Shown: positions 33,245-57,395, numbered from the stretch's first letter. The stretch is 64,000 bases of DNA from Candidatus Harrisonbacteria bacterium (GCA_016214655.1 JACROC010000007.1:14785-78784), one strand, 5' to 3'. Made by a program: numbers and translations. Notes: generated from the sequence alone by a model not told the origin.

Positions 33245-33543
33245 GCCGCGGTAGCTCAGTGGTAGAGCGCAGCCCTAAATTCTTTGGGGCTTTCCATTGT
33301 AAAATGGATTGAAAAATCAGGTGAATTCGGGGAAAACTTTAATCGAGAGATTAAAACAATCCCGAGCCAAGCCGACACACATAATAATTTATGTGCGCGG
33401 AAGGTGTAGAGACTATCCCTTTATGGGAGTAGTCCCGCTCTGCGGGACGAAGCGCCTGACACCCATTAAATAATTGGGTGATGATATAGTCCAAATAGCT
33501 TCGGAAGAGGCTGGCGTCGAGTGTTCGATTCACTCCCGCGGCA
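33245..33543 (+). tRNA. tRNA (probably Phe-GAA) interrupted by a group I intron
   Basis: 5' exon GCCGCGGTAGCTCAGTGGTAGAGCGCAGCCCT; 3' exon GAAGAGGCTGGCGTCGAGTGTTCGATTCACTCCCGCGGCA; acceptor 7/7 bp and anticodon stem CAGCC/GGCTG pair across the insert. Confidence 0.55.
33277..33503 (+). ncRNA. group I intron (about 227 nt) in tRNA anticodon loop
   Basis: P1: exon AGCCCU pairs with internal guide GGGGCU with U.G at the splice site; GGAAGGTGTAGAGACTA and GATATAGTCCAAAT resemble the P3/P7 core of cyanobacterial tRNA-Leu introns; intron ends in G. Confidence 0.5.
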
Positions 33544-37452: not shown

Positions 37453-37728
37453 TTATTTAACTGCTTCCTTTAGGGCTTTTCCGGCTCTGAATTTCGGCCG
37501 AACCGAAGCCGGGATCTGGAGTGTTTCTCCGGTTTTCGGATTTCTGCCTGTCCGGGCTGCGGCTTTAGCAGTCCGAAAAGTCCCAAAACCGGTTACCGTC
37601 ACCTCCTCTCCGCGCGAAAGAGACTTAGTAATAACCGCAAAAACAGCATCTGTAGCTATCTGCGCCTGTTTTTTTGTTTCACAATTGGCGACTTTCATTA
37701 CTACCTCAATAAGTCCTTCTTTAGTCAT
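37453..37728 (-). CDS. hup: DNA-binding protein HU
   Basis: GFGTFRTAKAAARTGRNPKTGETLQIPA arm motif typical of HU/IHF. Confidence 0.85.
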   Translation of the reverse strand: MTKEGLIEVVMKVANCETKKQAQIATDAVFAVITKSLSRGEEVTVTGFGTFRTAKAAARTGRNPKTGETLQIPASVRPKFRAGKALKEAVK

Positions 37729-37743
37729 ATAAATTCAGTACGT

Positions 37744-37800
37744 AGTTCGTAGAACGTAGGGCGTAGATTTTTCTACGAACCACGGGCTATTGCCTACGAC
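37744..37800. repeat. hairpin built from CGTAG-type repeats in the HU upstream region
   Basis: GTTCGTAGAA-cgtagggcgtagattt-TTCTACGAAC perfect 10-bp inverted repeat; then cctacgacc. Confidence 0.5.
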
Positions 37801-41970: not shown

Positions 41971-43248
41971 ATGATAGCTAATATTGTTACAAAAATCAAA
42001 AATGCCCCAAAAGATTCGGGTGTCTATATATTTTATTCTGGAAAAGAAGTTCTTTATATCGGGAAGGCTTCCAATCTGAAAAATCGTCTTCAAAGCTATC
42101 TGAAAATAACTGATTTTAAAACTGAGGCTCTGCATCGTGAAGCCAACAACTTAAAAATTTTTAAACTCAGCTCAAATATCGAAGCACTCATTACAGAGTC
42201 CCAGCTGATTAAAAATCTGAAACCGATCTACAATGTTCTCTGGCGCGATGATAAAAATTACTTTTATGTCGCTATCACCAAAGATAAATTTCCAAGAATA
42301 TTTTTATCTCATCAGCTCAATGAATATCCCGGCGCTAATTACATCGGGCCATTTACCGAAGGACGGGCAATTAAAGTAATTCTGCGCCTGCTTAGAAAAT
42401 TCTTTCCGTATTGCACCCACAATCAACACTTGCGACTTTGCCTCGACGCCCAAATCAACAACTGTCCCGGATACTGCTGCCAGAAAAATAACCAACAGCC
42501 GACAACTAACAACTTACACCTGATTAAAAAATATAATAAAAATATCCGAAAGATAAAAAATATTCTTACCGGCAAAAATAAAAATTTCATCCACCAACTT
42601 AAGGATCCGTATGAATTACTGGTCTTAGAAAAAATCTGGGCGCATGAACCATATCTCGAGGGTGGAGGGTTAAGGGTTAAGGGTTTAGAAGATAAAAACA
42701 GTAAAGAAAAAAACCTATATCCTAATCCCTATCCCCTAAACCCTAACAAGGTAGAATGCTACGATAACTCCCATCTCTCCGGCAAAGAAGCTGTGGGAGC
42801 GATGACTGCTTGGGTGAGACAAAAAAACGAAAAAACAGAAGAACAAAAGAACAAATGGGAAGCAGAAAAAAATATGTGGCGAAAATTTAAAATCAAAGGC
42901 AGTTATACAGAAGACGATCCGCGGATGATGGAAGAGGTCGTCTCTCGCCGGCTAAATCACCCGGAATGGCCATATCCAGACCTGATTATTATTGATGGAG
43001 GAATCACACAGTTTAATGCGGCTAAAAAAGCAATCCAAAGGTCAAATGTCAAAGGTCAGGCGTCAAATGTTATCAAAGTTATTTCTTTCGCTAAACCGCA
43101 GCAATTGATTTTCGGCTTAGAAAAAAATCCGATTCCGATTACCAAGCTTCCGGAAGAATTCCAAAAACTTATCGGAATGGCAATTCAAAATACCCATAAT
43201 TTCGCGATCCGCTACCACCGGAAAATTCGGTCACGCAACATGCTATAA
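41971..43248 (+). CDS. truncated UvrC-like GIY-YIG nuclease with low-complexity insert
   Basis: GVYIFYSGKEVLYIGKASNLKNRLQSY GIY-YIG; UvrC Cys cluster; C-terminal DNSH..IIDGGITQFNAAKKA endonuclease-like; no HhH tail; insert EGGGLRVKGLEDKNSKEKNLYPNPYPLNPNK encoded by TTAGGG-like repeats. Confidence 0.55.
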   Translation: MIANIVTKIKNAPKDSGVYIFYSGKEVLYIGKASNLKNRLQSYLKITDFKTEALHREANNLKIFKLSSNIEALITESQLIKNLKPIYNVLWRDDKNYFYVAITKDKFPRIFLSHQLNEYPGANYIGPFTEGRAIKVILRLLRKFFPYCTHNQHLRLCLDAQINNCPGYCCQKNNQQPTTNNLHLIKKYNKNIRKIKNILTGKNKNFIHQLKDPYELLVLEKIWAHEPYLEGGGLRVKGLEDKNSKEKNLYPNPYPLNPNKVECYDNSHLSGKEAVGAMTAWVRQKNEKTEEQKNKWEAEKNMWRKFKIKGSYTEDDPRMMEEVVSRRLNHPEWPYPDLIIIDGGITQFNAAKKAIQRSNVKGQASNVIKVISFAKPQQLIFGLEKNPIPITKLPEEFQKLIGMAIQNTHNFAIRYHRKIRSRNML

Positions 43249-43255
43249 TCAATTT

Positions 43256-43615
43256 ATGGGCTTTATTTCAAGAATTATCTTTTCTTTCTTTTCTAATCTT
43301 ATTGCGCTGGTAGTAGCCGGAAACTTCATACCCGGATTCGAATTAACTGATAATTTCGTGAATCTTTTAATTACGGCCGGTGTTTTTATGCTTATCAATA
43401 TTTACATCCGGCCATTGATAAAAATGATTCTGTCCCCGTTAGTGATTCTGACTCTCGGCCTATTTACCTTGGTTATTAATGCCGGGATGCTCTACCTCCT
43501 TGACATTCTCAGTGAGAATGTTACAATAACAGGAATTGAACCTCTTATATACGGAACTTTGCTTATGACGGGCGTAAATCTTTTACTCCATTTTTCGGCA
43601 AAATTCTTATCTTAA
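43256..43615 (+). CDS. DUF360/holin-family-4-like 4-TM membrane protein
   Basis: FMLINIYIRPLIKMILSPLVILTLGLFTLVINAGM pattern. Confidence 0.45.
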   Translation: MGFISRIIFSFFSNLIALVVAGNFIPGFELTDNFVNLLITAGVFMLINIYIRPLIKMILSPLVILTLGLFTLVINAGMLYLLDILSENVTITGIEPLIYGTLLMTGVNLLLHFSAKFLS

Positions 43616-43627
43616 TAACTAGCCATT

Positions 43628-43843
43628 ATGTATCTTCCAATTGCACAGGTAACAGTTTCAATTCTTTTAATAGTCTTAATACTGCTCCAAGAGCGGTCTT
43701 CTGGTTTATCCGGAGTTTTTGGGGGTGAAAGCGAGGGATCCTTTTATCACACCCGGCGAGGATTAGAAAAACTTATCTTCTGGGGCACAATTTTGTTATC
43801 AACGGCCTTTGCCGCCTTAGCTCTTCTTGACCTAATCTTATAA
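43628..43843 (+). CDS. secG: preprotein translocase subunit SecG
   Basis: 71 aa; LLQERSSGLSGVFGG Gly-rich loop between two TM helices. Confidence 0.6.
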   Translation: MYLPIAQVTVSILLIVLILLQERSSGLSGVFGGESEGSFYHTRRGLEKLIFWGTILLSTAFAALALLDLIL

Positions 43844-43916
43844 ACTTCAAGTAGGATGGATTTTGGCCTGCAAGAATCAGTTTCATTAGTAAGCGGCACA
43901 CTGCTTTTAATCTGAA

Positions 43917-45575
43917 ATGAATCGTCTATATCAAATTTTTAATAGTTTTACGAAAACCGAACGGTATATATTTTGGGCGGCATTTTCTATTTTTTTAGCC
44001 GCCAGTGCACTCTGGACCATCTTTACCATTCGGAATTCCACCGTAGAAGTTCCAGTCAGGAGCAGCCGTTATCAGGAGGGCGTTGTCGGCCAGCCCATTG
44101 CCATCAATCCGATACTAGCCGGAACTAATGATGTCGACCGCGATCTTATTGAGCTTTTATTCGACGGATTAATCAATCTTTCCGAGAACTACAAAGTCAG
44201 CGCCGACGGCCAAACTTGGAATGTAATCTTAAAACCGGACCTCCGCTGGAGCAACGGAAAATCGCTTACCAGCGACGATGTAATTTTCACCATTGATGCC
44301 ATACAAAATTCCGACAGCCGTTCGCCGCTATTTTTAACCTGGCAAGGAATAGTAGTAGACCGGATCAGCGAGCGAGAGGTTGAATTTACCCTTAGAACTC
44401 CGTATGCCTTTTTCCTAGATAACCTCAAAGATCTGAAAATTATTCCAAAGCATATTTTCGGAACCATACCGGTAGAAAACTTTCGGTTATCCAATTTTAA
44501 TCTTGAACCTACCGGCAATGGTCCGTATAAATATATCTCCTTTGAAAAGCGCAGTGATGGCTTTATAACTGATTATCTGTTGGCATCTAACGAGTATTTT
44601 ACGGGCGAAAAACCCTACATTAAAGAATTGACTGTCAGATTCTATCAAGACAGTAATCAGCTGCTTAAGGCCTTTAATCGCAAAAAGGTTGATGGTTTCG
44701 GCGGCCTGAATCCAAATAACCTCAAAGAATTAAAGCTGGGATATAAATTATTCGAAAAATCAATTCCGCAATATTATGCCATTTTCATCAACAAGAATAG
44801 CGCCCCCACTCTTGCTAACCAGAAAATTTTATCGGCGTTGAATTTAGCTACTGACAAACAAAAAATCGTCGATCAAATTTTCGGCAACAAAGCAACCGTG
44901 ATAAACGAACCAATTTTACCGATTATAAACGGTTACGAACTATCCGCGGATCCCGGCAATGAATTTTCTATCGAAAGAGCGGGTTCTCTATTAGATGAAG
45001 AGGGGTGGTTAAAAAATGAAAAAACTGGTGTCCGGGAGAAGAAAATCGGAAAACAACTGGCATCACTGGAGTATTCTATTGTTGTGCCGCAGATACCATT
45101 CCTTGTAGAAACTGTAAATATTATTAGAAGCGATTGGGAAAAAATAGGAATAAAATTAAACCCGATAATTTTAAACCCCGCTGATATCGCTAATGAAGTA
45201 ATAAAAACTAGAAATTACCAAATGATAATTTTCGGAAATATCTTAAGAAATAATCCGGATATTTTTTCCTTCTGGCATTCCTCGGAAAGATTTTATCCGG
45301 GCCTCAACTTGGCCCTCTACGACAATAAAAAGGTCGACGCCCTGCTGGAATCCATCCGGAAAAATCCGGATGAAAATTCCAGAAAGGATGATCTAGTTAA
45401 ATTGCAAAAATTAATCAGCGAGGATAAGCCGGCGATCTTTCTCTATTCGCCAGCCTATCTTTATGCGGGACCAAAAAATCTTGGGGGGGTTGAAGAAAAA
45501 ATCATTACTACCCCATCAAAGCGATTCCAAGACATCAACAAATGGTATCTAGAAACGCGGCGAGTCTTTAAATAA
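43917..45575 (+). CDS. ABC transporter substrate-binding protein, family 5 (peptide/nickel type)
   Basis: 552 aa, N-terminal TM anchor, SBP_bac_5-like length and composition. Confidence 0.65.
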   Translation: MNRLYQIFNSFTKTERYIFWAAFSIFLAASALWTIFTIRNSTVEVPVRSSRYQEGVVGQPIAINPILAGTNDVDRDLIELLFDGLINLSENYKVSADGQTWNVILKPDLRWSNGKSLTSDDVIFTIDAIQNSDSRSPLFLTWQGIVVDRISEREVEFTLRTPYAFFLDNLKDLKIIPKHIFGTIPVENFRLSNFNLEPTGNGPYKYISFEKRSDGFITDYLLASNEYFTGEKPYIKELTVRFYQDSNQLLKAFNRKKVDGFGGLNPNNLKELKLGYKLFEKSIPQYYAIFINKNSAPTLANQKILSALNLATDKQKIVDQIFGNKATVINEPILPIINGYELSADPGNEFSIERAGSLLDEEGWLKNEKTGVREKKIGKQLASLEYSIVVPQIPFLVETVNIIRSDWEKIGIKLNPIILNPADIANEVIKTRNYQMIIFGNILRNNPDIFSFWHSSERFYPGLNLALYDNKKVDALLESIRKNPDENSRKDDLVKLQKLISEDKPAIFLYSPAYLYAGPKNLGGVEEKIITTPSKRFQDINKWYLETRRVFK

Positions 45576-45596
45576 AAATCATTACCAATAATATTT

Positions 45597-45680
45597 GCCC
45601 CCGTGGCGGAACTGGCAGACGTACACGCTTCAGGTGCGTGCGGCCGAAAGGCCATAGAGGTTCAAATCCTCTCGGGGGCA
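45597..45680 (+). tRNA. tRNA-Leu (CAG)
   Basis: GCCCCCG acceptor, anticodon stem CACGC/GCGTG with loop TTCAGGT, long variable arm CGGCCGAAAGGCCAT, T-loop TTCAAAT. Confidence 0.8.
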
Positions 45681-45689
45681 CGAAAATTA

Positions 45690-45810
45690 ATAATTAACAA
45701 ACGCGATACCAATATACTAATACGTACGAATTATACTAATAATACTAATTTGATTCGTATTATTCGTATCATTAGCATGAATTCGTATATTAGTATCGCA
45801 ATAGCGTAAG
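45690..45810. repeat. AT-rich dyad/direct repeats upstream of rnj
   Basis: taatacgtacgaatt ... gaattcgtatatta inverted; atactaata / tattagtat; attcgtat x3. Confidence 0.4.
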
Positions 45811-45813
45811 CAT

Positions 45814-47553
45814 ATGATACGAGCACCAAAGAGAATATTTAAACCGGCAGTCCGACGGACCGCTGAAAGAAAAAAATCATCTGAAGAAAAAGAGGTGGTT
45901 TTAAGATTTGTCCCGCTAGGCGGATTGGAAGAGATCGGCCGCAACTGCGCCTTTTTTGAATACGGAGACGAAATAGTTATGATTGACGCCGGAATTCAAT
46001 TCCCGGAAGAAGAAACCCCTGGAATTGATTACATCATACCGAATGTTACCTACCTGGAACCAAAAAATAAAAATATCCGGGGAATCATTCTGACCCACGG
46101 CCATTATGACCACATCCATTCACTGCCATACATAATAGAAAAAATCGGGAATCCTCTTATTTATTGCGTAGAAATTACCAAAGCGCTGATTGAAAAACGC
46201 TTTTCTGAATTCCCAAATCTTCCAAAACCAAAATTTCAAATCGTAAAAGAGGGCGACCGGCTTGCCATCTCTGAACATTTTACCGCTGAATTCTTCTATG
46301 TGGACCACACCATTCCGGACGCAGTTGGTTTTGTGCTGGAAACTCCGGCTGGCAATATGGCGCATTTTGGCGATTTCCGGGTTGAATATGACAGAAAAAA
46401 TAATCCAATAAACACGGAAGTATTCGCCCGGCTGGCCGATAAAAAAATCCATACCGCCTTCTTAGACAGTACCAATGCGGATTTTGAGGGCCACTCCATC
46501 TCTGAAGAAGTAGTCGCCGACGAACTGGAAAAATTGATTGTCGCCGCCAAAGGAAGAATAATCCTCACTACTTTCGCCTCCCTACTCACTCGCGTCGCGG
46601 AAATAATCAAATTAGCTGAAAAACATGGAAGAAAAGTTGCGCCTAACGGAAGATCAATGAAAGATAATATCCAAATCGCCCAAAGACTAGGCCATATTAA
46701 AGCTAAGAAGGGGACTTTTATCGCCGTAGAAGAGATACATCAACATCCCGACAATAAGGTCATGATTCTTTCCACCGGCGGACAAGGAGAACCCAATGCC
46801 GGCTTAACCAAGATGGCCAATGGCGAACACCGCCATATCCATTTTAAAAAATCAGATACGGTTATCTTTTCTTCTTCAGTCGTTCCCGGCAACGAACGGA
46901 GTGTCCAACTTTTACAAGACAATATCGCGCGGCAGGTAGATGAAACTTATAATTCTAAATTGCTGGATATTCACTCCAGCGGCCACAGTCTCGCAGACGA
47001 CATCGAGCTGGTCTTAAAATTAGTAAAGCCGAAGTTTATGGTCCCGATCCACGCCTATTATTTCAAGTTAAAAGCGGCAACCAAGATTGCCCACAAACTG
47101 GGTATGCCTAAAGAAAATGCGGTTATATTGGATAATGGGCAAGTTGCAATCTTAACTAAGGACAATCTTATTCCTACCCAAGAAAAAGTTCCCACTAATT
47201 ACGTAATGGTTGACGGCCTTGGTATTGGTGACGTTGAAGAGGTGGTTCTCCGTGACCGCCGCTTGCTGGCGGAAGAAGGAATGGTCGTAGTTATATCTAC
47301 AATTGACCGCGAAACCGGCCGCTTACTAAAAACTCCGGACATCATTTCCCGCGGCTTTATTTACCTCAAAGAAAATAAAGAGTTATTAGACGACGTTCGT
47401 GGAAAGTTAAAATCTCTTTTAATCCGTATCCCCCGCCACACCCACCCGGAGCCGGATTATATCAAAACCTTAATCCGCGACCAAATCGGACAACTCTTGT
47501 ATAATAAGACTAGACGGAGACCAATGGTGCTTCCGGTACTTATAGAAATCTAA
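45814..47553 (+). CDS. rnj: ribonuclease J
   Basis: MBL motif ILTHGHYDH, beta-CASP and C-terminal domain; 579 aa. Confidence 0.85.
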   Translation: MIRAPKRIFKPAVRRTAERKKSSEEKEVVLRFVPLGGLEEIGRNCAFFEYGDEIVMIDAGIQFPEEETPGIDYIIPNVTYLEPKNKNIRGIILTHGHYDHIHSLPYIIEKIGNPLIYCVEITKALIEKRFSEFPNLPKPKFQIVKEGDRLAISEHFTAEFFYVDHTIPDAVGFVLETPAGNMAHFGDFRVEYDRKNNPINTEVFARLADKKIHTAFLDSTNADFEGHSISEEVVADELEKLIVAAKGRIILTTFASLLTRVAEIIKLAEKHGRKVAPNGRSMKDNIQIAQRLGHIKAKKGTFIAVEEIHQHPDNKVMILSTGGQGEPNAGLTKMANGEHRHIHFKKSDTVIFSSSVVPGNERSVQLLQDNIARQVDETYNSKLLDIHSSGHSLADDIELVLKLVKPKFMVPIHAYYFKLKAATKIAHKLGMPKENAVILDNGQVAILTKDNLIPTQEKVPTNYVMVDGLGIGDVEEVVLRDRRLLAEEGMVVVISTIDRETGRLLKTPDIISRGFIYLKENKELLDDVRGKLKSLLIRIPRHTHPEPDYIKTLIRDQIGQLLYNKTRRRPMVLPVLIEI

Positions 47554-48527
47554 TGTCAAAACCAATTCTAATTTCTGGCACGCAACCAGATGGCAGATTG
47601 CATTTAGGCAACTATCTCGGCGCCATCAAAAATTGGGTTGAGCTACAAAATTCAGAAAAATATGAATGTTATTTTATAATTGTTGATTATCACTCATTAA
47701 CGGTTGATTTTAATCCGACTGAAAAAAAAGAGGAGGTTCTGGGGGTTGTCAGGGCATATCTAGCGGCCGGGATTGATCCGAAAAAATCAAAAATCTTTGT
47801 CCAATCACGCATTCCTGAGTGTACGGAATTAGCCTGGATTTTAAACACTATTACGCCATTGGGGGAATTAGAAAGAATGACTCAATTTAAAGAAAAGTCC
47901 GAGAATAAAGAATCGGTTAACACGGGATTACTTACCTATCCCATTTTAATGGCGGCGGATATTCTCCTTTATGATGCACGATTCGTGCCTGTGGGCGAAG
48001 ACCAATTGCAACACTTAGAACTCACAAGAACGCTGGCAAGGAAATTCAATAATAAATTCGGAAAAACTTTCATTGAACCTCGGGCAATTCTATCCAAAGC
48101 CTCACGGGTTATGAGCTTAGATAATCCCAGCAAAAAGATGTCTAAATCGCATCCGGAAACTTGCCTATTTCTAGATGATCCCCCGAAAGATATAGAATTC
48201 AAGATCAAGCGCGCAGTCACTGATTCCGGTTCAGAAGTAAAATTTGATTTAGAAAAAAAGCCGGGCGTTTCCAATTTACTTCTTATTTATGAAGCATTGT
48301 CTGGAATAACAATTCCAAAACTAGAAAAGAAATACGCTGGCAAGGGATATGGCCAGTTTAAATCTAATCTTGCCGAAGTTGCCATCAAAACCTTGGCGAC
48401 CTTCCGCGAATCAAAATTCAGCGACAAAAAATTAAAATCTATTCTCACAAATGGAGCGGAAAAAGCTAAAAAAATTGCCTCAAGCAAAATGCAAGTAATC
48501 AAAAATAGATTAGGCTTACGTGTCTAA
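47553..48527 (+). CDS. trpS: tryptophan--tRNA ligase
   Basis: class I motifs GNYLG (HIGH-like) and KMSKS; 324 aa. Confidence 0.85.
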   Translation: MSKPILISGTQPDGRLHLGNYLGAIKNWVELQNSEKYECYFIIVDYHSLTVDFNPTEKKEEVLGVVRAYLAAGIDPKKSKIFVQSRIPECTELAWILNTITPLGELERMTQFKEKSENKESVNTGLLTYPILMAADILLYDARFVPVGEDQLQHLELTRTLARKFNNKFGKTFIEPRAILSKASRVMSLDNPSKKMSKSHPETCLFLDDPPKDIEFKIKRAVTDSGSEVKFDLEKKPGVSNLLLIYEALSGITIPKLEKKYAGKGYGQFKSNLAEVAIKTLATFRESKFSDKKLKSILTNGAEKAKKIASSKMQVIKNRLGLRV

Positions 48528-48672
48528 AAGATCTTTTAATACCAATAAACTAGAATCCACTGCAACTAAAAAGCCGGGCATAAACCAGAAACTCGCCCGG
48601 AGACCAAAGAATCATCTCGGCCATTATTAGAGAATTGGTCAACGTTGACAGGGGCAGAAAAAATGAACGACT

Positions 48673-48705
48673 AAAAATATCCTGCCAGGCAGGATATTTT
48701 TAGTC
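48673..48705. terminator. bidirectional palindromic terminator
   Basis: aaaaatatcctgccaggcaggatattttt. Confidence 0.5.
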
Positions 48706-48951
48706 TTCTTCATAGAATTCCATTTTCCCTCCATCCACCCGCTCAATAGCTTTTCCTTCTTTCTCATACCACTTCTTTCGCTCAGCCTCACTTTTAAATT
48801 CATCGATTTTAAATTTGGTGCCAGGAGCCTCTCCTTTTGGTGGATGATAACGAATCGCATAAACTTTTAGCTTAGGCAATTTTTCCTCCAGGCCCTGTTC
48901 CCGAGAAAGTCTGTCAAATTTTTCTGATCTTTTAAATGATTTATCGATCAT
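48700..48951 (-). CDS. hypothetical protein
   Basis: 83 aa charged. Confidence 0.4.
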   Translation of the reverse strand: MIDKSFKRSEKFDRLSREQGLEEKLPKLKVYAIRYHPPKGEAPGTKFKIDEFKSEAERKKWYEKEGKAIERVDGGKMEFYEED

Positions 48952-48960
48952 ATATAAAGT

Positions 48961-51900
48961 TTACAACTTTCTTACGCCGATCCAAATCGGCTGATCTTCT
49001 AATTTTGTATTAAGTTCGGCATCAAATTTGGCAGATCTTTTAAATTCAACTGATCCAGCACCGACGTCTTTTCCTAAAAATTTACTATGGCGCCCCCAAA
49101 TAAACATAAGTTCTCTGGGTGCCTCAATCATTAAATGAATTTTATCCTTAGGCACATAATTGGCATCATGCCGCAATCCCTGCACCGCCCGGACTAATTC
49201 CCTGATTAGCCCCTCCTCTTTTAATTCCGGCGTTATTTTAAGATCTAAATCTATGTCACCGGCCAATTCCTGATTCCATTTCACTTCTTTTACATTCACT
49301 TCATCTTTCAAAATCTCCAATAACTCTGCATCTCGTACGTCCAACTTTTTACTTTTAACTTCCAGCGCTTGAAGCGGTTGACGCACCTTAACTCCTTTTT
49401 CTGCACGCAAAGCCAATGCCAAACTCGATAAACGCCGGATCTCTTCCATTTTTTCCAAAAGCGAATGATCAATAATTTTTTTATCCGCCTCCGGCCAGTT
49501 TTGCAAATGCACTGAATTATGAATCATGAATTTCGAATCGTGGGATTTTTTATTTCCTTTATTCGTAATTCCTAATTCATTATTCAGCGATAGAAAAAGT
49601 GCATCAGCGAAAAATGGCGTAAAAGGCGCAATCAATTTGCTCAACTCCACCAAACAAAGATTAAGAACAGCCGATGCTCCTTTAAAATCGTTTTGATCCT
49701 CCGGTCTTTGTAACCGAGTACGCGAACGCCGGATATACCATCGGGATAAATCATCGACAAATACCTCCAGCGTCTTCCCAGCGGCACCAACGTCATATTT
49801 TTCTAAACCGTCCGTAACTTGCTGAATAGTTTGATTTAACCTTGCTAAAACCCATTTATCCAAAATGCTTTTAGGGTTTAGGGTGGAGGGTTTAGGGTTT
49901 AGTTTTTTTTCTGCATACGTATCAAAAAATACAAATGAATTATAAATGATCATTATGAATTTCCGCAGCATCTTTCCAAGATCCGCCTCGTCAAACTTTT
50001 TTGGTTCACTCGGAGGATTCACTGTATAGAAATACCAGCGAACAGTATCGGCGCCATATTTATTCATCATATCCCAAGGGCTTACCACATTCCCCTTTGA
50101 TTTAGACATTTTCTGGCCATTTTTATCCAGAACCAAGCCAAGCGTAATTACATTTTTATACGGATTTTCTAAGCCAAGCGCAGTCGCAACCGCCAACAAC
50201 GTATAAAACCATCCGCGCGTCTGATCAATTCCTTCACTGATATAATCAGCCGGGAAGTCAGTACATTCTTTTAGGGTCGTAGGTCGTAGGTCGTAGGTCA
50301 TAGGTTCCTTCGTGCAAGCGAATGGATAATGATCCTGAGCAAAGGGCATTGCGCCGGAATCAAACCAGACATCTGCCACCTCCTTAACCCTTTCCATTCT
50401 ATTTTCGCATTTTTTACAGCGGAGAAAAACGCTGTCTATATAAGGACGGTGTAAATCTAATTCCGCATTAGAGTTGTACGGCCAATTATGAAATTCTGCT
50501 TTGCGGACTTCTCCGTTATTTTTCGGATAATCAGACTTCAAAATTTCCTCATTAGACAATCCGCCTAAAGCGCCGGCTAAAACCCAGAGCGGATCTCCAT
50601 GACTGACGATCAAAATATTTTTATCTTTACACTTGAAATTAATATCCCCTACTGCCGCAAACATCCTTTTTTTTGCATCGGAAAGATTTTCGCCTCCTGG
50701 AGGAGTTTTAGTAAATTCTTTTATGGAATCTCCAAAAAATTCTTTATGTTCTTTAATTTTTCTCCAATTAAAAATGCCGCAGTTTAATTCACCTAGCCGC
50801 TCATCGGTAATGATTTCTGCCTTAGTACCTTTAGCCACGATTTTCGCAGTCTGCTTGGTCCGTCTATATGGAGAGGTCACAATTAAATCTAATTTTTCCT
50901 TGCCAAGCATTTTTTTAATATTATGGGCGGCAGTTTCCGCGTCCTTCTTTCCTTTTTCGGTAAGTTTAGAAATTTGCTTTCCTTTCTCTGGTCCGGAAGC
51001 AATTAAATCATTCAAATTATGTTCAGCCTCACCGTGACGCAACAAGAAAAAATTATTCCGTGCATAAGCTAGATTATCCAGATCTCGAAGGCTGCCTATA
51101 ACTTCCAGATGATCGCACTTTACGCATTTCCAGATCGGCAGCGGAGTTCCCCAATAACGATCGCGGGAAATTGCCCAGTCTTTGATTTCCCGTAGCCATT
51201 CTCCAAATCTTCCCTCTTTAATATGTTCCGGAACCCAATTAATCTTTCCGTTATTTTTCAAAAGCTGATCTCGCAGACCGCTCATTTCTATAAACCAAGA
51301 AAAACGGGCATAATATAAAATCGTAGTTCCGCAACGCCAGCAAAACGGATAATCGTGCTCAATAACTCCGCTTTTATATAAATTTTTCCGCTTTTCTAAA
51401 TCTTTCAAAATATCCTCGTCTGCTTTTTTCGCAAATTTTCCTTGCCCAGGCAAACCTTTCCGTACAATGCCTTTTTCATCAATAGTAATAGGTATCTGCC
51501 CGACTAACTCTTTTTGAAAACTTTTGACTAAATTCATGTCGTCTTCACCGAACGCCGGAGCAATATGAACCATCCCGGTTCCCTCTTCAGTGGACACGAA
51601 ATCGGCACCATAAACTTTAAAAAATTTATTATTCTTCAGCCACGGACCACTAACTTTGAATAAAGGTTTATAATTTAAACCGACAAGCTTTTTCCCGGAA
51701 ACCTTTTCAACGACCTCGACTTCCGCGCCGCCATCTCCCGGAGGTGCGCTAAATGACCAGATGAAGTCCTTACCTACTTTGTATTTGGTATAACTTAATT
51801 CCGGATTTACTGCGATCGCCACATTTGAAGGCAAAGTCCACGGAGTAGTAGTCCAAACCAATAAATGTTCTTTAGCTTTTATTCTTGAGCTTTTAACTTT

Positions 51901-52539
51901 GAGCTCAAACTTTACATAGATTGAGGGATCCTTAACTTTCTTATATACTCCCGGCTGGCCCATTTCATGGCTGGAAAGCGGCGTCTGGCAGCGCGGGCAA
52001 TAAGGAACGATTTTAAATGATTGCCTTAGGAGACTGCGGTTAGCAATTTGTTTAAATACCCACCACAAACTTTCTATATAATCATTTTTATAAGTGACAT
52101 AAGGATTTTTTAAATCCAGCCAAAACCCAATGCGATCAGTAAATTTTTCCCATTCATCCTGATATTTCCACACTGAAGCTTTTGCTTTTTCATTAAATTC
52201 TGCAATGCCAAACTTTTCTATGTCTTGCTTATTCTTTAAGCCAAGTTCTTTTTCCACCTCAATTTCAACCGGCAAGCCATGAGTATCCCAGCCAGCTTTC
52301 CGGCGAACGAAATATCCCTGCATAGTTTTGAAACGTGGAATCACATCCTTATAGGCACGGCCCTCTACATGACCCATATGCGGCCGGCCATTTGCAGTCG
52401 GCGGTCCCTCAAAAAAGCGGTATTTTTTCGCACCCTCACGCAACTTTTGCGCCTTCTCGAAAATCCGGTTTTCTTTCCAAAACTTAAGCACTTTTTCCTC
52501 TATCTCCGGCAAGTTAAGTTGTTTTAATCCCCGCAACAT
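48961..52539 (-). CDS. ileS: isoleucine--tRNA ligase with inserted histidine-phosphatase (PGAM-like) domain
   Basis: HMGH and KMSKS class I motifs and editing domain; about 230-aa insert LLRHGEAEHN..SPYRRTKQTA..SHGDPLWVL (RHG, R, H catalytic residues of branch-1 histidine phosphatases) before KMSKS; extra low-complexity segments. Confidence 0.85.
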   Translation of the reverse strand: MLRGLKQLNLPEIEEKVLKFWKENRIFEKAQKLREGAKKYRFFEGPPTANGRPHMGHVEGRAYKDVIPRFKTMQGYFVRRKAGWDTHGLPVEIEVEKELGLKNKQDIEKFGIAEFNEKAKASVWKYQDEWEKFTDRIGFWLDLKNPYVTYKNDYIESLWWVFKQIANRSLLRQSFKIVPYCPRCQTPLSSHEMGQPGVYKKVKDPSIYVKFELKVKSSRIKAKEHLLVWTTTPWTLPSNVAIAVNPELSYTKYKVGKDFIWSFSAPPGDGGAEVEVVEKVSGKKLVGLNYKPLFKVSGPWLKNNKFFKVYGADFVSTEEGTGMVHIAPAFGEDDMNLVKSFQKELVGQIPITIDEKGIVRKGLPGQGKFAKKADEDILKDLEKRKNLYKSGVIEHDYPFCWRCGTTILYYARFSWFIEMSGLRDQLLKNNGKINWVPEHIKEGRFGEWLREIKDWAISRDRYWGTPLPIWKCVKCDHLEVIGSLRDLDNLAYARNNFFLLRHGEAEHNLNDLIASGPEKGKQISKLTEKGKKDAETAAHNIKKMLGKEKLDLIVTSPYRRTKQTAKIVAKGTKAEIITDERLGELNCGIFNWRKIKEHKEFFGDSIKEFTKTPPGGENLSDAKKRMFAAVGDINFKCKDKNILIVSHGDPLWVLAGALGGLSNEEILKSDYPKNNGEVRKAEFHNWPYNSNAELDLHRPYIDSVFLRCKKCENRMERVKEVADVWFDSGAMPFAQDHYPFACTKEPMTYDLRPTTLKECTDFPADYISEGIDQTRGWFYTLLAVATALGLENPYKNVITLGLVLDKNGQKMSKSKGNVVSPWDMMNKYGADTVRWYFYTVNPPSEPKKFDEADLGKMLRKFIMIIYNSFVFFDTYAEKKLNPKPSTLNPKSILDKWVLARLNQTIQQVTDGLEKYDVGAAGKTLEVFVDDLSRWYIRRSRTRLQRPEDQNDFKGASAVLNLCLVELSKLIAPFTPFFADALFLSLNNELGITNKGNKKSHDSKFMIHNSVHLQNWPEADKKIIDHSLLEKMEEIRRLSSLALALRAEKGVKVRQPLQALEVKSKKLDVRDAELLEILKDEVNVKEVKWNQELAGDIDLDLKITPELKEEGLIRELVRAVQGLRHDANYVPKDKIHLMIEAPRELMFIWGRHSKFLGKDVGAGSVEFKRSAKFDAELNTKLEDQPIWIGVRKL

Positions 52540-52587
52540 ATCCTTATATATTAAGAGAGTTTGGAGCTATTTTCAAATAAAAACTCC

Positions 52588-52893
52588 TCATTCAGAGGAG
52601 CGTTTATGATTTTTTTCCAAATGGCGGCCATAATCTGTATGCTTATGAATTGATTGAAGATATCTATAATATCTTTCAGATTCCTTTAATAAAGAAATAT
52701 AATGTCTTAGTCTTCCAACTTCTTCACGAAGAGCGTTGAGTCCCCTTGGTCTCGGCTTCTTTAAAATTTTTTTTAAGCCTATCTCTGTTAACCAATGGGC
52801 TAAGGCAATCTTCAATCTTGAAAACCTCACCTTATTTTTTAAGTAATAATCTCTACACTGCGCGTCATTAGGAATTCGGATCATGGTTACCAA
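52588..52893 (-). CDS. hypothetical basic protein
   Basis: 101 aa. Confidence 0.4.
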   Translation of the reverse strand: MVTMIRIPNDAQCRDYYLKNKVRFSRLKIALAHWLTEIGLKKILKKPRPRGLNALREEVGRLRHYISLLKESERYYRYLQSIHKHTDYGRHLEKNHKRSSE

Positions 52894-52973
52894 AATTTAT
52901 TCATCAAATAACTAAAAAGAATATATCATTTCAAAATTAATTAAGCAATCTTAAAAATCAAACAAAAATCGCT

Positions 52974-53393
52974 CTAACTGAGCGATTTAGTCTTAACTAA
53001 AAAAACTTGTATTTTATTATTTTCGAACGAACCAAACATTTTCCGATAAAAGAAAGTCCCGGCCACATCCGCCGCAATATCGCCCCAAGAAATAAATATG
53101 GGTCTGGCAAAAGAAACGCACAGCCCAACCCAGGGACTTAATAAAAATTCTTCTGCTGCCTCCCAGCTAAGCCCTACAAGAAAAGATATCAAGAGAAATG
53201 CCAGCCAGCTCCTGATATTTAAAAAATGAGCGGCTAAAGCTCCAATAAAATAACCGCCGGCAAGATGGAATAGTTTATCAACGCTCCATCTGTCCACGAC
53301 GACTGCCAATTGCGAATTGTGAACTACTAAATATGCAAGATACAAGGATAGAAAACCGATACTGATGGTCTTTAAATCCTTCAAAGCAGCCAA
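52974..53393 (-). CDS. VanZ-like membrane protein
   Basis: 139 aa, 4 TM helices. Confidence 0.4.
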   Translation of the reverse strand: MAALKDLKTISIGFLSLYLAYLVVHNSQLAVVVDRWSVDKLFHLAGGYFIGALAAHFLNIRSWLAFLLISFLVGLSWEAAEEFLLSPWVGLCVSFARPIFISWGDIAADVAGTFFYRKMFGSFENNKIQVFLVKTKSLS

Positions 53394-53725
53394 ATCTCCT
53401 CCCGCGTTGCTTTGATATTTCTCAGTAAATGCCGGAAGCCGAATTCCGAATTTAAAAAATCCATCCTTAGCGATTGAAGCGGGTCATGCTGGCATTCATT
53501 GCAAGTACAAGGACTATTCAACCAAACCGCTGCCGACTCCTGATCCCTAAAATCTGCCAACAATTCAGCTACTATCTTACAAAAACGTGCATCCCTCTCC
53601 TGTTCCCAAATCCCAGCCTTCATTCCCGCAAAATCCGACTTAAACTTGACGAGCATCTCCACGATCATACTCTGTCGTTCCTGAAGGCTTCCGGGCATCT
53701 GTTTAGAATTTTCAATAAAGCTCAA
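53381..53725 (-). CDS. hypothetical protein
   Basis: 114 aa. Confidence 0.4.
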   Translation of the reverse strand: MSFIENSKQMPGSLQERQSMIVEMLVKFKSDFAGMKAGIWEQERDARFCKIVAELLADFRDQESAAVWLNSPCTCNECQHDPLQSLRMDFLNSEFGFRHLLRNIKATREEIWLL

Positions 53726-53757
53726 TATAGAATAACGCGGGTAAAAAAATTTTGCAA

Positions 53758-55434
53758 TTACATTTTCTTCGGCTTGCCCATACCCAAAATCTCTAAGCCG
53801 CTTCCCAGTACCACCCCAAAAGCTTCTGTTAAAGCTACTTTATACGGGGAATATTTATCATCTGGATTAACAATTTTAACTTTTGCGTAGTAAGAATTAA
53901 AAACTCTGGCTAATTCGGTCAAATAGAAAACCATATAATTAGGCGCGTATTCTTTACCAGCCCTCTCTAAAATCTCTGGGAAGCGGCATAGCATCCGCTC
54001 AACTTCGCTAACCTCGGCAGGTAAAAGCTTAAGCGATGGCCGCACGCCCTCTTCTTTTGCTTTGGTTAAAACTGAATTAGCGCGGGTATAGGCATATTGA
54101 AGATAAGGACCAGAATCACCTTCAAAAGAAATTGATTTTTCAAAATCAAAAATAATGTCCCCTCCAACGGCCTGCTTTAAAATAGAATATTTTATGGCCG
54201 CGATTGACACCGCCTCTTCAATTTCCTTCTTCTCTTCATTACTCAATTCCCGGTCTTTGATTTTTTTCCGCACCAACCATTGAACATCTTCAATTAATGA
54301 TTCGGCAGTAATAACATCGCCAGTCCTGGAAGACATTTTACCGCTCGGCGACCGCAGCATACCATGAGAAAGATGCGTAGTCCTTTCCGCAAGCTTGGGA
54401 AACATAATTTCCATAACCTTTAAAAGAACTTTAAAATAGTCATTTACCTCGTTACCCGTAATAACAATGGATTTATCATAAGAATATTTTTTATATTTTA
54501 ACTCAGCCAACCCTAACTCTTTGGCCTCATAAGTCGGAAGGCCTTCAGAATTTATAAAAACCCGGGTATGTAATCCGTACTTTTCTCCTTTAAAAACTGT
54601 AGCGCCCTGGCTTTTTTCAAAAACTCCCCTCTTTAATCCTTTTTCAACTATTTTTTTACCAAATTTTCCGGTTTCGCTTTCAAAAAAATAATAATTGAAT
54701 TTTGTGCCAAGCCTTCTATAGATATTTTCAAAATGATCTAGAGATAAAGCCTTGCCGCTATCATAGATTTTGTTAATATTCTTATCGTTTCGATCATATA
54801 TTTTTTTATTAATTTCGTTTATTTCCTTTTTAACTCGTTCGTCGGATTCATAAACCCGCGACCCGGCCGCATATGCTTTGGCTAAATCTGCCATTGAATC
54901 AATTTTCTTAAATCCTAAATGATCAATTCCCCAAACCGCTTTTGCCACATGCATACCAACATCCCCCTGATAACAAGCCCTTTTAACTTTAGCCCCGTTC
55001 CATTCAATAATCCGCGATAATGCCTCGCCGATAGAATTACTCATTAAATGCCCGATATGGAACTCTTTAAAAGGATTTGGGTCGGTGTATTCAATAATCG
55101 TCTTCTGTCCTTTTAGATTATTATTTCTTCCATATTTATTTTTATTTTTTAAAATTACGGCTAATTCTTTTTGGAATAATTTCGGCTTCAGCCAAAAATT
55201 CACAAAACCCGGCGCCACCGCTTCCACTTTCACAAATTTACTTGACGCTTGACGCTTGACGCTTGACGCTATTTCTTTAGCAATCTCAAAAGGCGGCTTT
55301 TTTAACAACGGCGCAAGTTTAAAAGCCACATTCGTGGAATAATGTCCGAATTCCTCTTTTTCTGAAGCGCTTATATCAAATTCCGTATCTGCTCCTATAA
55401 CCTTTTTAATCTGTATCTCTAAATTTTCTACCAT
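53758..55434 (-). CDS. argS: arginine--tRNA ligase
   Basis: class I HIGH region HIGHLMS and C-terminal anticodon-binding domain; insert SSVKRQASSK encoded by CTTGACG x4. Confidence 0.85.
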   Translation of the reverse strand: MVENLEIQIKKVIGADTEFDISASEKEEFGHYSTNVAFKLAPLLKKPPFEIAKEIASSVKRQASSKFVKVEAVAPGFVNFWLKPKLFQKELAVILKNKNKYGRNNNLKGQKTIIEYTDPNPFKEFHIGHLMSNSIGEALSRIIEWNGAKVKRACYQGDVGMHVAKAVWGIDHLGFKKIDSMADLAKAYAAGSRVYESDERVKKEINEINKKIYDRNDKNINKIYDSGKALSLDHFENIYRRLGTKFNYYFFESETGKFGKKIVEKGLKRGVFEKSQGATVFKGEKYGLHTRVFINSEGLPTYEAKELGLAELKYKKYSYDKSIVITGNEVNDYFKVLLKVMEIMFPKLAERTTHLSHGMLRSPSGKMSSRTGDVITAESLIEDVQWLVRKKIKDRELSNEEKKEIEEAVSIAAIKYSILKQAVGGDIIFDFEKSISFEGDSGPYLQYAYTRANSVLTKAKEEGVRPSLKLLPAEVSEVERMLCRFPEILERAGKEYAPNYMVFYLTELARVFNSYYAKVKIVNPDDKYSPYKVALTEAFGVVLGSGLEILGMGKPKKM

Positions 55435-56939: not shown

Positions 56940-57309
56940 GGGGATGAAAAGCTTCGACAATTTATTTTCTGTCAGGTTCGCAAGCTGAGCTGAATTAACT
57001 CGTAAAACTAATTCAAAATTATAAGTGCAAACTTATTCAATCGTCAGCCAGCTTACGCTTTAGCGTAATTTATCCCGGCCTTAGCGTCGGGACTGGCCAT
57101 CGATCAGCCAAAGCTTGATAGGCTGCCAATCGGTGTCATACATCAAGCTCTGCCTTGATAAACCGAGTATCAAAGCGAATTGCAATCGGTAAAGAGAATA
57201 GCGTATTTTGTTAGATCTAAACGTTATTCTCTATAAATTTAATCTAACTAAGCTTGTAGAAAATTTGGCGGGTATAATTTGGACGCGGATGCAATTTCCG
57301 CCATCTCCA
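56940..57309 (+). ncRNA. ssrA: tmRNA (SsrA)
   Basis: 5' GGGGATGAAAAGCTTCGAC (consensus GGGG.UGA..GGAUUCGAC); 3' GGACGCGGATGCAATTTCCGCCATCTCCAC (E. coli GGACGCGGGUUCAACUCCCGCCAGCUCCACCA); acceptor GGGGATG pairs with CATCTCC; tag ORF 57027-57068 GCA.. = ANLFNRQPAYALA stop. Confidence 0.7.
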
Positions 57310-57395
57310 CAAATAAAAAAGACGGTCCCATAACCGCCCATAACTTTTCTGCCTGACTATCAAACTAAAATTTACCTCTACAAAAATCATTAGAA

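Follow-up and report, generated by a model that had tools for sequence, protein, structure and literature searches.

Heptanucleotide tandem arrays in reading frame inside ileS, argS and uvrC of a Harrisonbacteria-like patescibacterium

Tandem repeats with a 7-base unit are in general excess in bacteria, as reported in 2007 by Mrazek and colleagues (as quoted in PMC4692102 and PMC4679880). Known since then, the excess has no established cause and has been studied almost only in intergenic DNA. In Xanthomonas and Nostoc, the heptamer repeats are G-rich, with GGGAATC and GGGGAYT units (Rehm et al. 2015, PMC4692102), and the intragenic share is 7–11% in Xanthomonas and ~32% in Nostoc (PMC4692102). 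For the most part, heptamer repeats lie between genes, and coding DNA avoids units whose length is not a multiple of three (PMC4692102, PMC4679880). In Xanthomonas, each genome has 70–75 convergent pairs of heptamer arrays, with a preference for ~4 units. Here, we describe arrays of the same period in a 64-kb stretch of DNA (the window; positions are counted from its first letter) from a Candidatus Harrisonbacteria-like member of the Patescibacteria, in which they lie in frame inside ileS, argS and a uvrC-like gene. These arrays are a coding-region variant of the known bacterial heptanucleotide repeat excess. A literature search found no paper linking the candidate phyla radiation (CPR) or Patescibacteria to heptamer or microsatellite repeats.

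As in the bacterial heptanucleotide simple sequence repeats, the 7-base units are head to tail, period 7 exceeds the neighbouring periods, and there are ~4 units per array. With the heptamers of Xanthomonas and Nostoc, the arrays share frequent convergent pairs, G3N4 motifs in the G-rich units, and variation in length and sequence between species at the same locus. On the other hand, those repeats are mostly intergenic, with one dominant unit per genome in Xanthomonas and Nostoc, whereas here 33 of the 35 arrays (score of at least 10, window and relatives together) are inside open reading frames (ORFs) and in frame, in essential housekeeping genes, with dozens of units and with inverted arms that co-vary between species. 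Rickettsia palindromic elements form a dispersed family of similar 100–150-bp copies, hairpin-forming and in frame in housekeeping ORFs. The arrays resemble them as translated hairpin DNA in housekeeping genes, encoding an extra surface peptide. In Borgs, the units of the intragenic tandem repeats are all divisible by three (PMC9879509). The arrays are like these Borg repeats in being A-biased perfect tandem repeats in ORFs, genome-specific, flanked by partial units, of local origin and fast evolution, and in adding a hydrophilic peptide; unlike in Borgs, the unit is 7, translation runs through all three phases, and the frame survives only steps of 21 bases. The short tandemly repeated repetitive heptamers of cyanobacteria and the TAACTGA repeats of Beggiatoaceae occur in 2–6 tandem copies, are lineage-restricted, and spread by a mechanism that is not established (PMC4679880). 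They have one or few fixed units, mainly intergenic and upstream of start codons, whereas the present arrays are diverse and coding.

Arrays were detected with Tandem Repeats Finder (TRF) and a self-shift scan, and both give a period-7 description of the tracts cited in a first-pass annotation of the window. Every tract quoted there as an in-frame tandem repeat was found again, with small shifts of coordinates, and all have period 7. An exact-array scan with match/mismatch scoring covered periods 2–21 over the 64 kb; the relaxed threshold was a score of at least 10, with expectations from a 3rd-order Markov model, and the identities of the host genes (short UvrC, IleS, ArgS) were checked with Pfam. 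Strong exact arrays occur with period 7 only, plus one of period 14 (~0.06 expected per period). The relaxed threshold gives 7 period-7 tracts where 0.2 are expected, and the other periods between 4 and 15 are near background. The period-7 excess in the window is far above chance, specific to 7 and statistically robust. Copy numbers (TRF and self-shift) are 4.3–4.7 at 49870, 50275 and 55241 and at least 2.9 at 42666; the median array is 30.5 nt, or 4.4 units, long. Three genes, together 10% of the window, contain 6 of its 7 arrays (P ~7e-6). These genes and their arrays are:

48961-52539, minus strand: ileS, 1192 amino acids (aa), with an inserted His_Phos_1 domain and at least 4 heptamer arrays.
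49513-49586, minus strand: ileS inverted pair, TGAATnA x4 and its complement, a hairpin with 27-nt arms, encoding NNELGITNKGNKKSHDSKFMIHNS.
49870-49902, minus strand: ileS array, TTTAGGG x4.7 (CCCTAAA-type on the coding strand), encoding LNPKPSTLNPK.
50275-50305, minus strand: ileS array, GGTCGTA x4.4 (CCTACGA on the coding strand), encoding PMTYDLRPTT.
53758-55434, minus strand: argS, 558 aa.
55241-55270, minus strand: argS array, perfect CTTGACG x4.3 (GCGTCAA on the coding strand), encoding ASSVKRQASS.
41971-43248, plus strand: uvrC-like gene, 425 aa, with GIY-YIG and UvrC RNase H domains (Pfam) and three heptamer arrays.
42658-42685, plus strand: uvrC linker arm 1, GAGGGTGGAGGGTTAAGGGTTAAGGGTT, with units GGGTGGA, GGGTTAA, GGGTTAA and GGGTTTA, encoding EGGGLRVKG/GGGLRVKGL; the TRF call inside it is AGGGTTA at 42666-42685.
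42710-42746, plus strand: uvrC linker arm 2, degenerate and C-rich, with units CTATATC, CTAATCC, CTATCCC, CTAAACC and CTAAC, encoding PNPYPLNPN.
43036-43067, plus strand: array in the C-terminal part of uvrC, GTCAAAG-type (TRF CAAAGGT), decayed, encoding QRSNVKGQASN.

Two of the ileS arrays (49513-49531 and 49561-49586) had been overlooked in the first pass. The source annotation of the UvrC is GIY-YIG nuclease family protein. In the 425-aa protein, Pfam gives only the GIY-YIG and RNase H endonuclease domains and no match for helix-hairpin-helix.

In 288 kb of loci from related Patescibacteria (labelled L001 onwards), there are 31 period-7 tracts against 1.4 expected, with other periods near background, and in 154 kb of non-CPR loci from the same queries there are none. 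The density is ~1.3–3.7 arrays per 10 kb in the window, L001, L004, L005, L014, L018, L019, L024, L032 and L038-L040, and zero in L002/L020, L003, L008, L031, L033 and L037. The heptamer-array trait is patchy among Parcubacteria. The best IleS relatives of the window are Harrisonbacteria and Paceibacter metagenome-assembled genomes (65–75% identity). Genome and metagenome scans for closer relatives gave nothing above ~75% IleS identity; the nearest relative found has ~81% nucleotide identity, and the 90% clusters of the window ArgS and UvrC have one member each.

The conserved property of the arrays is the 7-base period and not the sequence, with units that vary by locus and by species. The first-pass annotation had taken the tracts for genome-specific sequence motifs, which k-mer counts do not bear out. 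Outside the arrays, TTAGGG occurs 16 times (16.3 expected from the 3rd-order Markov model), TTTAGGG 8 times (6.6), GTCGTAG 5 times (3.2), CTTGACG 4 times (4.5) and TCGTAG 22 times (17.9). Dispersed genome-specific motifs are ruled out by this match to expectation, and the underlying process is therefore not sequence-specific. The TTAGGG-like tracts of uvrC (42659-42671) and ileS (49880-49892) have in common an exact 13-mer, AGGGTGGAGGGTT, in opposite coding orientations, and no other sequence is common to different array loci of the window. When up to 2 mismatches are allowed, AGGGTGGAGGGTT matches 6 times against 1.0 expected, mostly inside the arrays themselves, and both coincidence and ectopic copying are compatible with this. 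The TTAGGG/TTTAGGG tracts are not telomeric by position (four units, internal, translated in uvrC and ileS). An account by telomere-like sequence or by G-quadruplexes (G4) only was discarded, since only two arrays are G-rich, both translated and with stop-breaking units.

The intragenic share of the arrays shows no depletion with respect to the 89.6% of coding DNA. Translation takes a heptamer unit in each of its three phases, with 7 residues per 21 bases. An unvaried run of CCCTAAA or GGGTTAA would meet an in-frame TAA within three units, and in both cases a variant unit breaks the stop: CCCTCCA in the middle of the ileS array at 49870-49902, and GGGTTTA as the last unit of uvrC arm 1, at a place where GGGTTAA would give the TAA. 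Only ~57% of random heptamers are stop-free in tandem. On the coding strand, T is at 17% in the arrays vs. 26% in genes; every base of an array takes the second codon position once, where T means a hydrophobic residue, and the low T thus fits selection against hydrophobic residues. The arrays sit in variable surface loops or linkers of the host proteins, and the alignments of orthologs agree with the initial view that they occupy lineage-variable loops of essential genes. Of the accompanying suggestion of a tolerated in-frame expansion, the tolerance and the frame-keeping are broadly right, but most tracts overwrite loops of roughly conserved length and are not net insertions.

In codon alignments of argS, ileS and uvrC, the same loops bear arrays across species, with different units and nearly equal loop lengths. 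Unit identity is 0.76–1.0 within an array and 0.18–0.7 between orthologous units, with flanks at ~70%. Homogeneity within arrays together with divergence between orthologs points to concerted evolution or repeated local renewal. In ileS, the tracts occupy the loop enclosed by HYPF and FPADYISEG and the beginning of the anticodon-binding domain. The array at 50275-50305 fills this 11-aa loop, and orthologs have a loop of equal length with other heptamer units (CCTACGA x4 in the window; CTTAAGA-type in L001, with the common frame C.TA.GA; AAAGCTn in L019; TCAAGCT in L005). The LNPKPSTLNPK array at 49870-49902, with a G4 motif on the plus strand, is also present in the 72%-identical ortholog L018, stop-breaking unit included, so that this array is old. 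The segment at 49513-49586 is 10–16 aa longer than in orthologs. Separately, a complete His_Phos_1 (phosphoglycerate-mutase-like) domain is found at residues 498-684 of IleS (window 50487-51048, minus strand; Pfam E = 1e-30), where it splits the halves of the catalytic domain; the same architecture is called in L031-L034 and L041-L044, and the insertion is thus a clade-wide feature of these Parcubacteria.

In argS, the tract corresponds to residues 56-65, at the end of the helix 48-62 and the turn before the strand 67-73 of the N-terminal domain, in an AlphaFold model with a mean pLDDT of 86.5 (~90–95 for the tract block). A disordered low-complexity insert, as proposed at first, was rejected for ArgS because the model confidently shows the tract as the end of a helix and a turn. 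The closest relative, at 83% aa identity, lacks the perfect array and carries 24 bases of unrelated sequence in this loop. Simple 21-base insertions were also rejected, since this relative differs by only +6 nt at the loop and most loops are length-conserved. The arrays are not all of one age, as this argS array and that of LNPKPSTLNPK in ileS show. The C-terminal loop of argS was compared across 7 orthologs, with the following units:

L001: ACTTACG x4.5.
L004: AAGCGAC x4.6.
L024: GAAAAGC, passing to ATCAAGC.
L005: CAACCCA.
L007 and L014: AAAGTCC and AAAGTCG.

Several of these units extend straight from the conserved flank CGAAAAGCG. Heptamer arrays occur at the same N-terminal loop in two types of ArgS. 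The two types are 33% identical and occupy one syntenic slot upstream of ileS (window 53758-55434; L001 8003-9568) in lineages that are otherwise closely related. Type 1 is found in the window, L003 and L015, and type 2 in L001, L004, L005, L007 and L014; the split within the same slot suggests xenologous replacement.

In uvrC, the linker tracts precede the RNase H domain and the two arms flank a ~10-aa spacer. They make the window linker ~18 aa longer than in L001, a short-linker ortholog that has the spacer without arms; the linker of L003 is shorter still, and the arms are absent from these two and from many other orthologs. Over 44 orthologs, the UvrC linkers have 17 to 71 residues, and many forms of ~38 residues read arm-spacer-arm. 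In the window, arm 2 is approximately the reverse complement of arm 1 (complementarity score of 15 vs. a shuffle mean of 7.3). In the DNA of eight species, both arms are heptamer arrays and mutual reverse complements, in five unit groups:

GGGTTAA: window, L035.
GCGnTnA: L005, L036.
GAATCTn: L037, L038.
AAATnCC: L039.
GGTGAAA: L040.

Local alignment of arm 1 with the complement of arm 2 scores 10–15 within species, 5.4–7.3 on average for shuffles, and 3–10 across groups. Since the scores within species are above those of shuffles and of cross-group comparisons, the uvrC arms co-vary. The hairpin does not fold better than shuffles in the window or L005 (z = -0.8 to -1.6), and the case for it rests on arm co-variation, not thermodynamics. 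The third uvrC array (43036-43067) is homologous to a better-preserved array in L001. The longest heptamer array observed is in L040 (6322-6376), where an almost 8-copy AATTCCT array runs across the uvrC stop codon into the intergenic spacer.

The inverted-pair architecture is found also at ileS 49513-49586 (DNA fold z = -3.58), in L018, and at two intergenic places of the window:

37453-37728, minus strand: hup (HU, identity confirmed by translation).
37737-37766: intergenic CGTAGnn x4 array upstream of hup, with a degenerate inverted CTACGnn-like partner (element 37737-37800).
45706-45796: intergenic inverted pair of period-9 arrays, of ATACTAATA and ATTCGTATT types, directly downstream of tRNA-Leu(CAG).

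The element upstream of hup, associated with the coding repeats already in the first-pass annotation, is indeed an object of the same class, a period-7 array with an inverted partner, and it folds better than shuffles (z = -3.04). The period-9 pair forms a long hairpin (z = -3.7).

The arrays are probably heptanucleotide microsatellites produced by replication misalignment, through slippage and template switching, and filtered by selection. Strand slippage would copy a local 7-base unit into a head-to-tail duplicate. As units are then gained and lost again and again, the array would become homogeneous in each lineage, while the unit sequence drifts between lineages and the period of 7 stays. 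With an inverted partner nearby, template switching between the arms would preserve their complementarity; quasipalindrome correction, known from E. coli genetics, is the type of template-switch event expected between inverted arrays. Loops of 7 bases lie beyond MutS-type mismatch repair, which would help the units to persist. Because nearly all DNA is coding in this lineage, selection would act as a filter, in which the frame is kept (net changes in multiples of 3, or 21 for whole units) and the survivors are also stop-free in all three phases, made of hydrophilic residues and placed in tolerant loops or linkers. Filtering of this sort would confine the arrays to a small number of permissive sites in ileS, argS and uvrC; the encoded peptides may be neutral. 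For the length of 7 bases, a possible reason is the sole published idea, as quoted in PMC4692102 and PMC4679880, namely a polymerase footprint (Mrazek and colleagues).

Several observations weigh against slippage filtered by selection. Simple slippage predicts 21-base net insertions, and most arrays are loop replacements of unchanged length, with the uvrC arms and the ileS hairpin as exceptions in net length; length-neutral overwriting requires multi-step selection on loop length, or another mechanism. Slippage alone does not predict the concentration of arrays in three genes. Nor is coding DNA depleted of arrays, even though a slip by one unit would be lethal there in two cases out of three. 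The units at non-homologous sites are also more alike than they should be, with 25 pairs within one mismatch vs. 9 in composition-matched shuffles (uncorrected for shared ancestry and codon preferences). Finally, no length polymorphism is seen: four long assemblies of the L001 lineage, from four samples, are 100% identical over 12 kb including the arrays (as consensus sequences, blind to minor alleles), and the scans gave no relative of the window closer than ~81% nucleotide identity. Differing called protein lengths in the L001 lineage are gene-calling artefacts and not population polymorphism.

It is rather unlikely that at least the inverted-pair and G-rich arrays are functional hairpins or G-quadruplexes in coding DNA, modulating translation, mRNA decay or replication, with compensatory evolution to keep the arms complementary. 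Such a role would fit the complementarity of the uvrC arms in 8 species despite at least 4 complete unit changes, and the ileS hairpin and the two intergenic hairpins, which beat shuffles (z = -3.0 to -3.7). It would also fit the two TTAGGG-like tracts, which contain the window's only G3N4 x4 quadruplex motifs (42660-42683 and 49874-49897, as sequence motifs; 0.2 expected); similar heptamers of Xanthomonas and Nostoc form G4 in vitro (PMC4692102). On the other hand, the pairing of the uvrC arms is imperfect, the fold does not beat shuffles in the window or L005, and the arms are wholly lacking in many orthologs. Since hairpin arrays are found both between genes and within genes unrelated to each other, no gene-specific role is indicated; the majority of arrays are single and not G-rich. 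Co-evolving inverted arms could be mistaken for conserved RNA structure.

An improbable source of the arrays, in place of local slippage, is a set of tiny mobile or copy-paste elements, comparable to Rickettsia palindromic elements or cyanobacterial small dispersed repeats, which would enter genes in frame and leave the arrays as footprints. Orthologs either have the uvrC arms as a block or lack them, the 13-mer of the ileS and uvrC tracts is exact and in opposite coding orientation, and similar units recur across genes and genomes. In the relatives, a dispersed 20-nt palindrome, CCTGCCTGCCGGCAGGCAGG, lies in frame inside heptamer arrays. However, the window arrays belong to no common sequence family, with motif k-mers at background outside the arrays; the units extend from conserved local flank; homologous loops hold their length while the unit changes; and CCTGCCTGCCGGCAGGCAGG is absent from the window. 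Of the traits of in-frame palindromic mobile elements of the Rickettsia, REPIN/MITE or cyanobacterial kind, hairpin formation, in-frame position and presence or absence among orthologs (the uvrC arms and the ileS 49513-49586 hairpin) are found here; in place of a dispersed family, the window has locus-specific sequences with 7-periodic arms. The palindrome CCTGCCTGCCGGCAGGCAGG is perfect, and either strand translates to LPAGRQ. It sits in frame at mid-array in argS of L014 (1396-1425) and in ileS of L018 (2480-2510, 3218-3248), occurs also at other loci of relatives (L005, L022, L023), and looks like a genuinely dispersed mini-element.

A similarly small chance goes to a lineage-specific enzyme with an intrinsic 7-base step, acting by reiterative copying in gap filling or break repair and overwriting ~30 bases per event. 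Possible forms are a repair polymerase that realigns its primer and an activity akin to reverse transcriptase or telomerase. The narrow size of the arrays (with the median of 4.4 units), the replacement rather than extension of loops, the heritable and patchy trait among lineages, and the lack of depletion in coding DNA would all fit such an enzyme, and family X polymerase genes are found beside argS in several relatives. But the data examined show no candidate enzyme that correlates with the trait, the many different units argue against a fixed template, and both the detection threshold and what the proteins tolerate influence the size distribution. Family X polymerases are moreover common in bacteria without such arrays. 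The family X DNA polymerases, with a PHP domain, are encoded a few kb upstream of argS in L031 (4191-5939), L032 (5216-6934), L033 (4361-6031) and L034 (4071-5801). In this small sample, the gene occurs in array-bearing and array-free lineages alike, and it is no more than a pointer to a repair polymerase with a possible part in array formation.

Contingency (phase-variation) loci, in which genes are switched by a change in unit number as the first-pass annotation had considered, are very improbable: as in classical contingency loci, of which heptanucleotide examples are reported in Haemophilus, every one-unit change shifts the frame in these perfect arrays of at least 4 units with a length not a multiple of three, but the hosts are single-copy essential housekeeping genes (ileS, argS) or uvrC with arrays in mid-ORF rather than in the promoter or 5' part of a dispensable gene, usually one for a surface or restriction-modification function, the assemblies from four samples of a related lineage are identical across the arrays, and some arrays are old and conserved at the peptide level.

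Two further features of the window are Rfam matches. A group I catalytic intron gives a full-length Rfam match at 33267-33513 (plus strand; 92 bits, E = 2e-22) in a neighbourhood rich in tRNA genes. A tmRNA gene adjoins the argS region at 56940-57312 (plus strand; Rfam, 125 bits), and in relatives SmpB is next to the tmRNA.

Beside slippage filtered by selection, there is a minor but real chance that some Patescibacteria have a heritable DNA transaction with a 7-base step, which continually rewrites ~30-base patches of essential genes where change is tolerated and keeps nearby inverted patches complementary, or else that the uvrC and ileS hairpins are a selected structured element. The candidates for such a transaction could be a behaviour of the replicative or repair polymerase, or the loss of a suppressing exonuclease. 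If it is real, protein loops and linkers would be generated and renewed by a microsatellite engine. If either reading is true, the heptamer preference of bacteria would become accessible to comparative study, since array-bearing and array-free lineages are closely related. The sharp contrast in density between close lineages, from 0 to ~3 arrays per 10 kb, makes the mechanism testable by comparative genomics and read-level analysis. Two features stand out, the concerted evolution at fixed loops of essential genes and the co-varying inverted arms. The signature of the bacterial 7-base repeat excess is here inside essential genes of ultra-small, gene-dense bacteria, where the reading frame records the surviving events, and the heptamer arrays are a concrete source of some of the lineage-specific loop sequences of CPR proteins.

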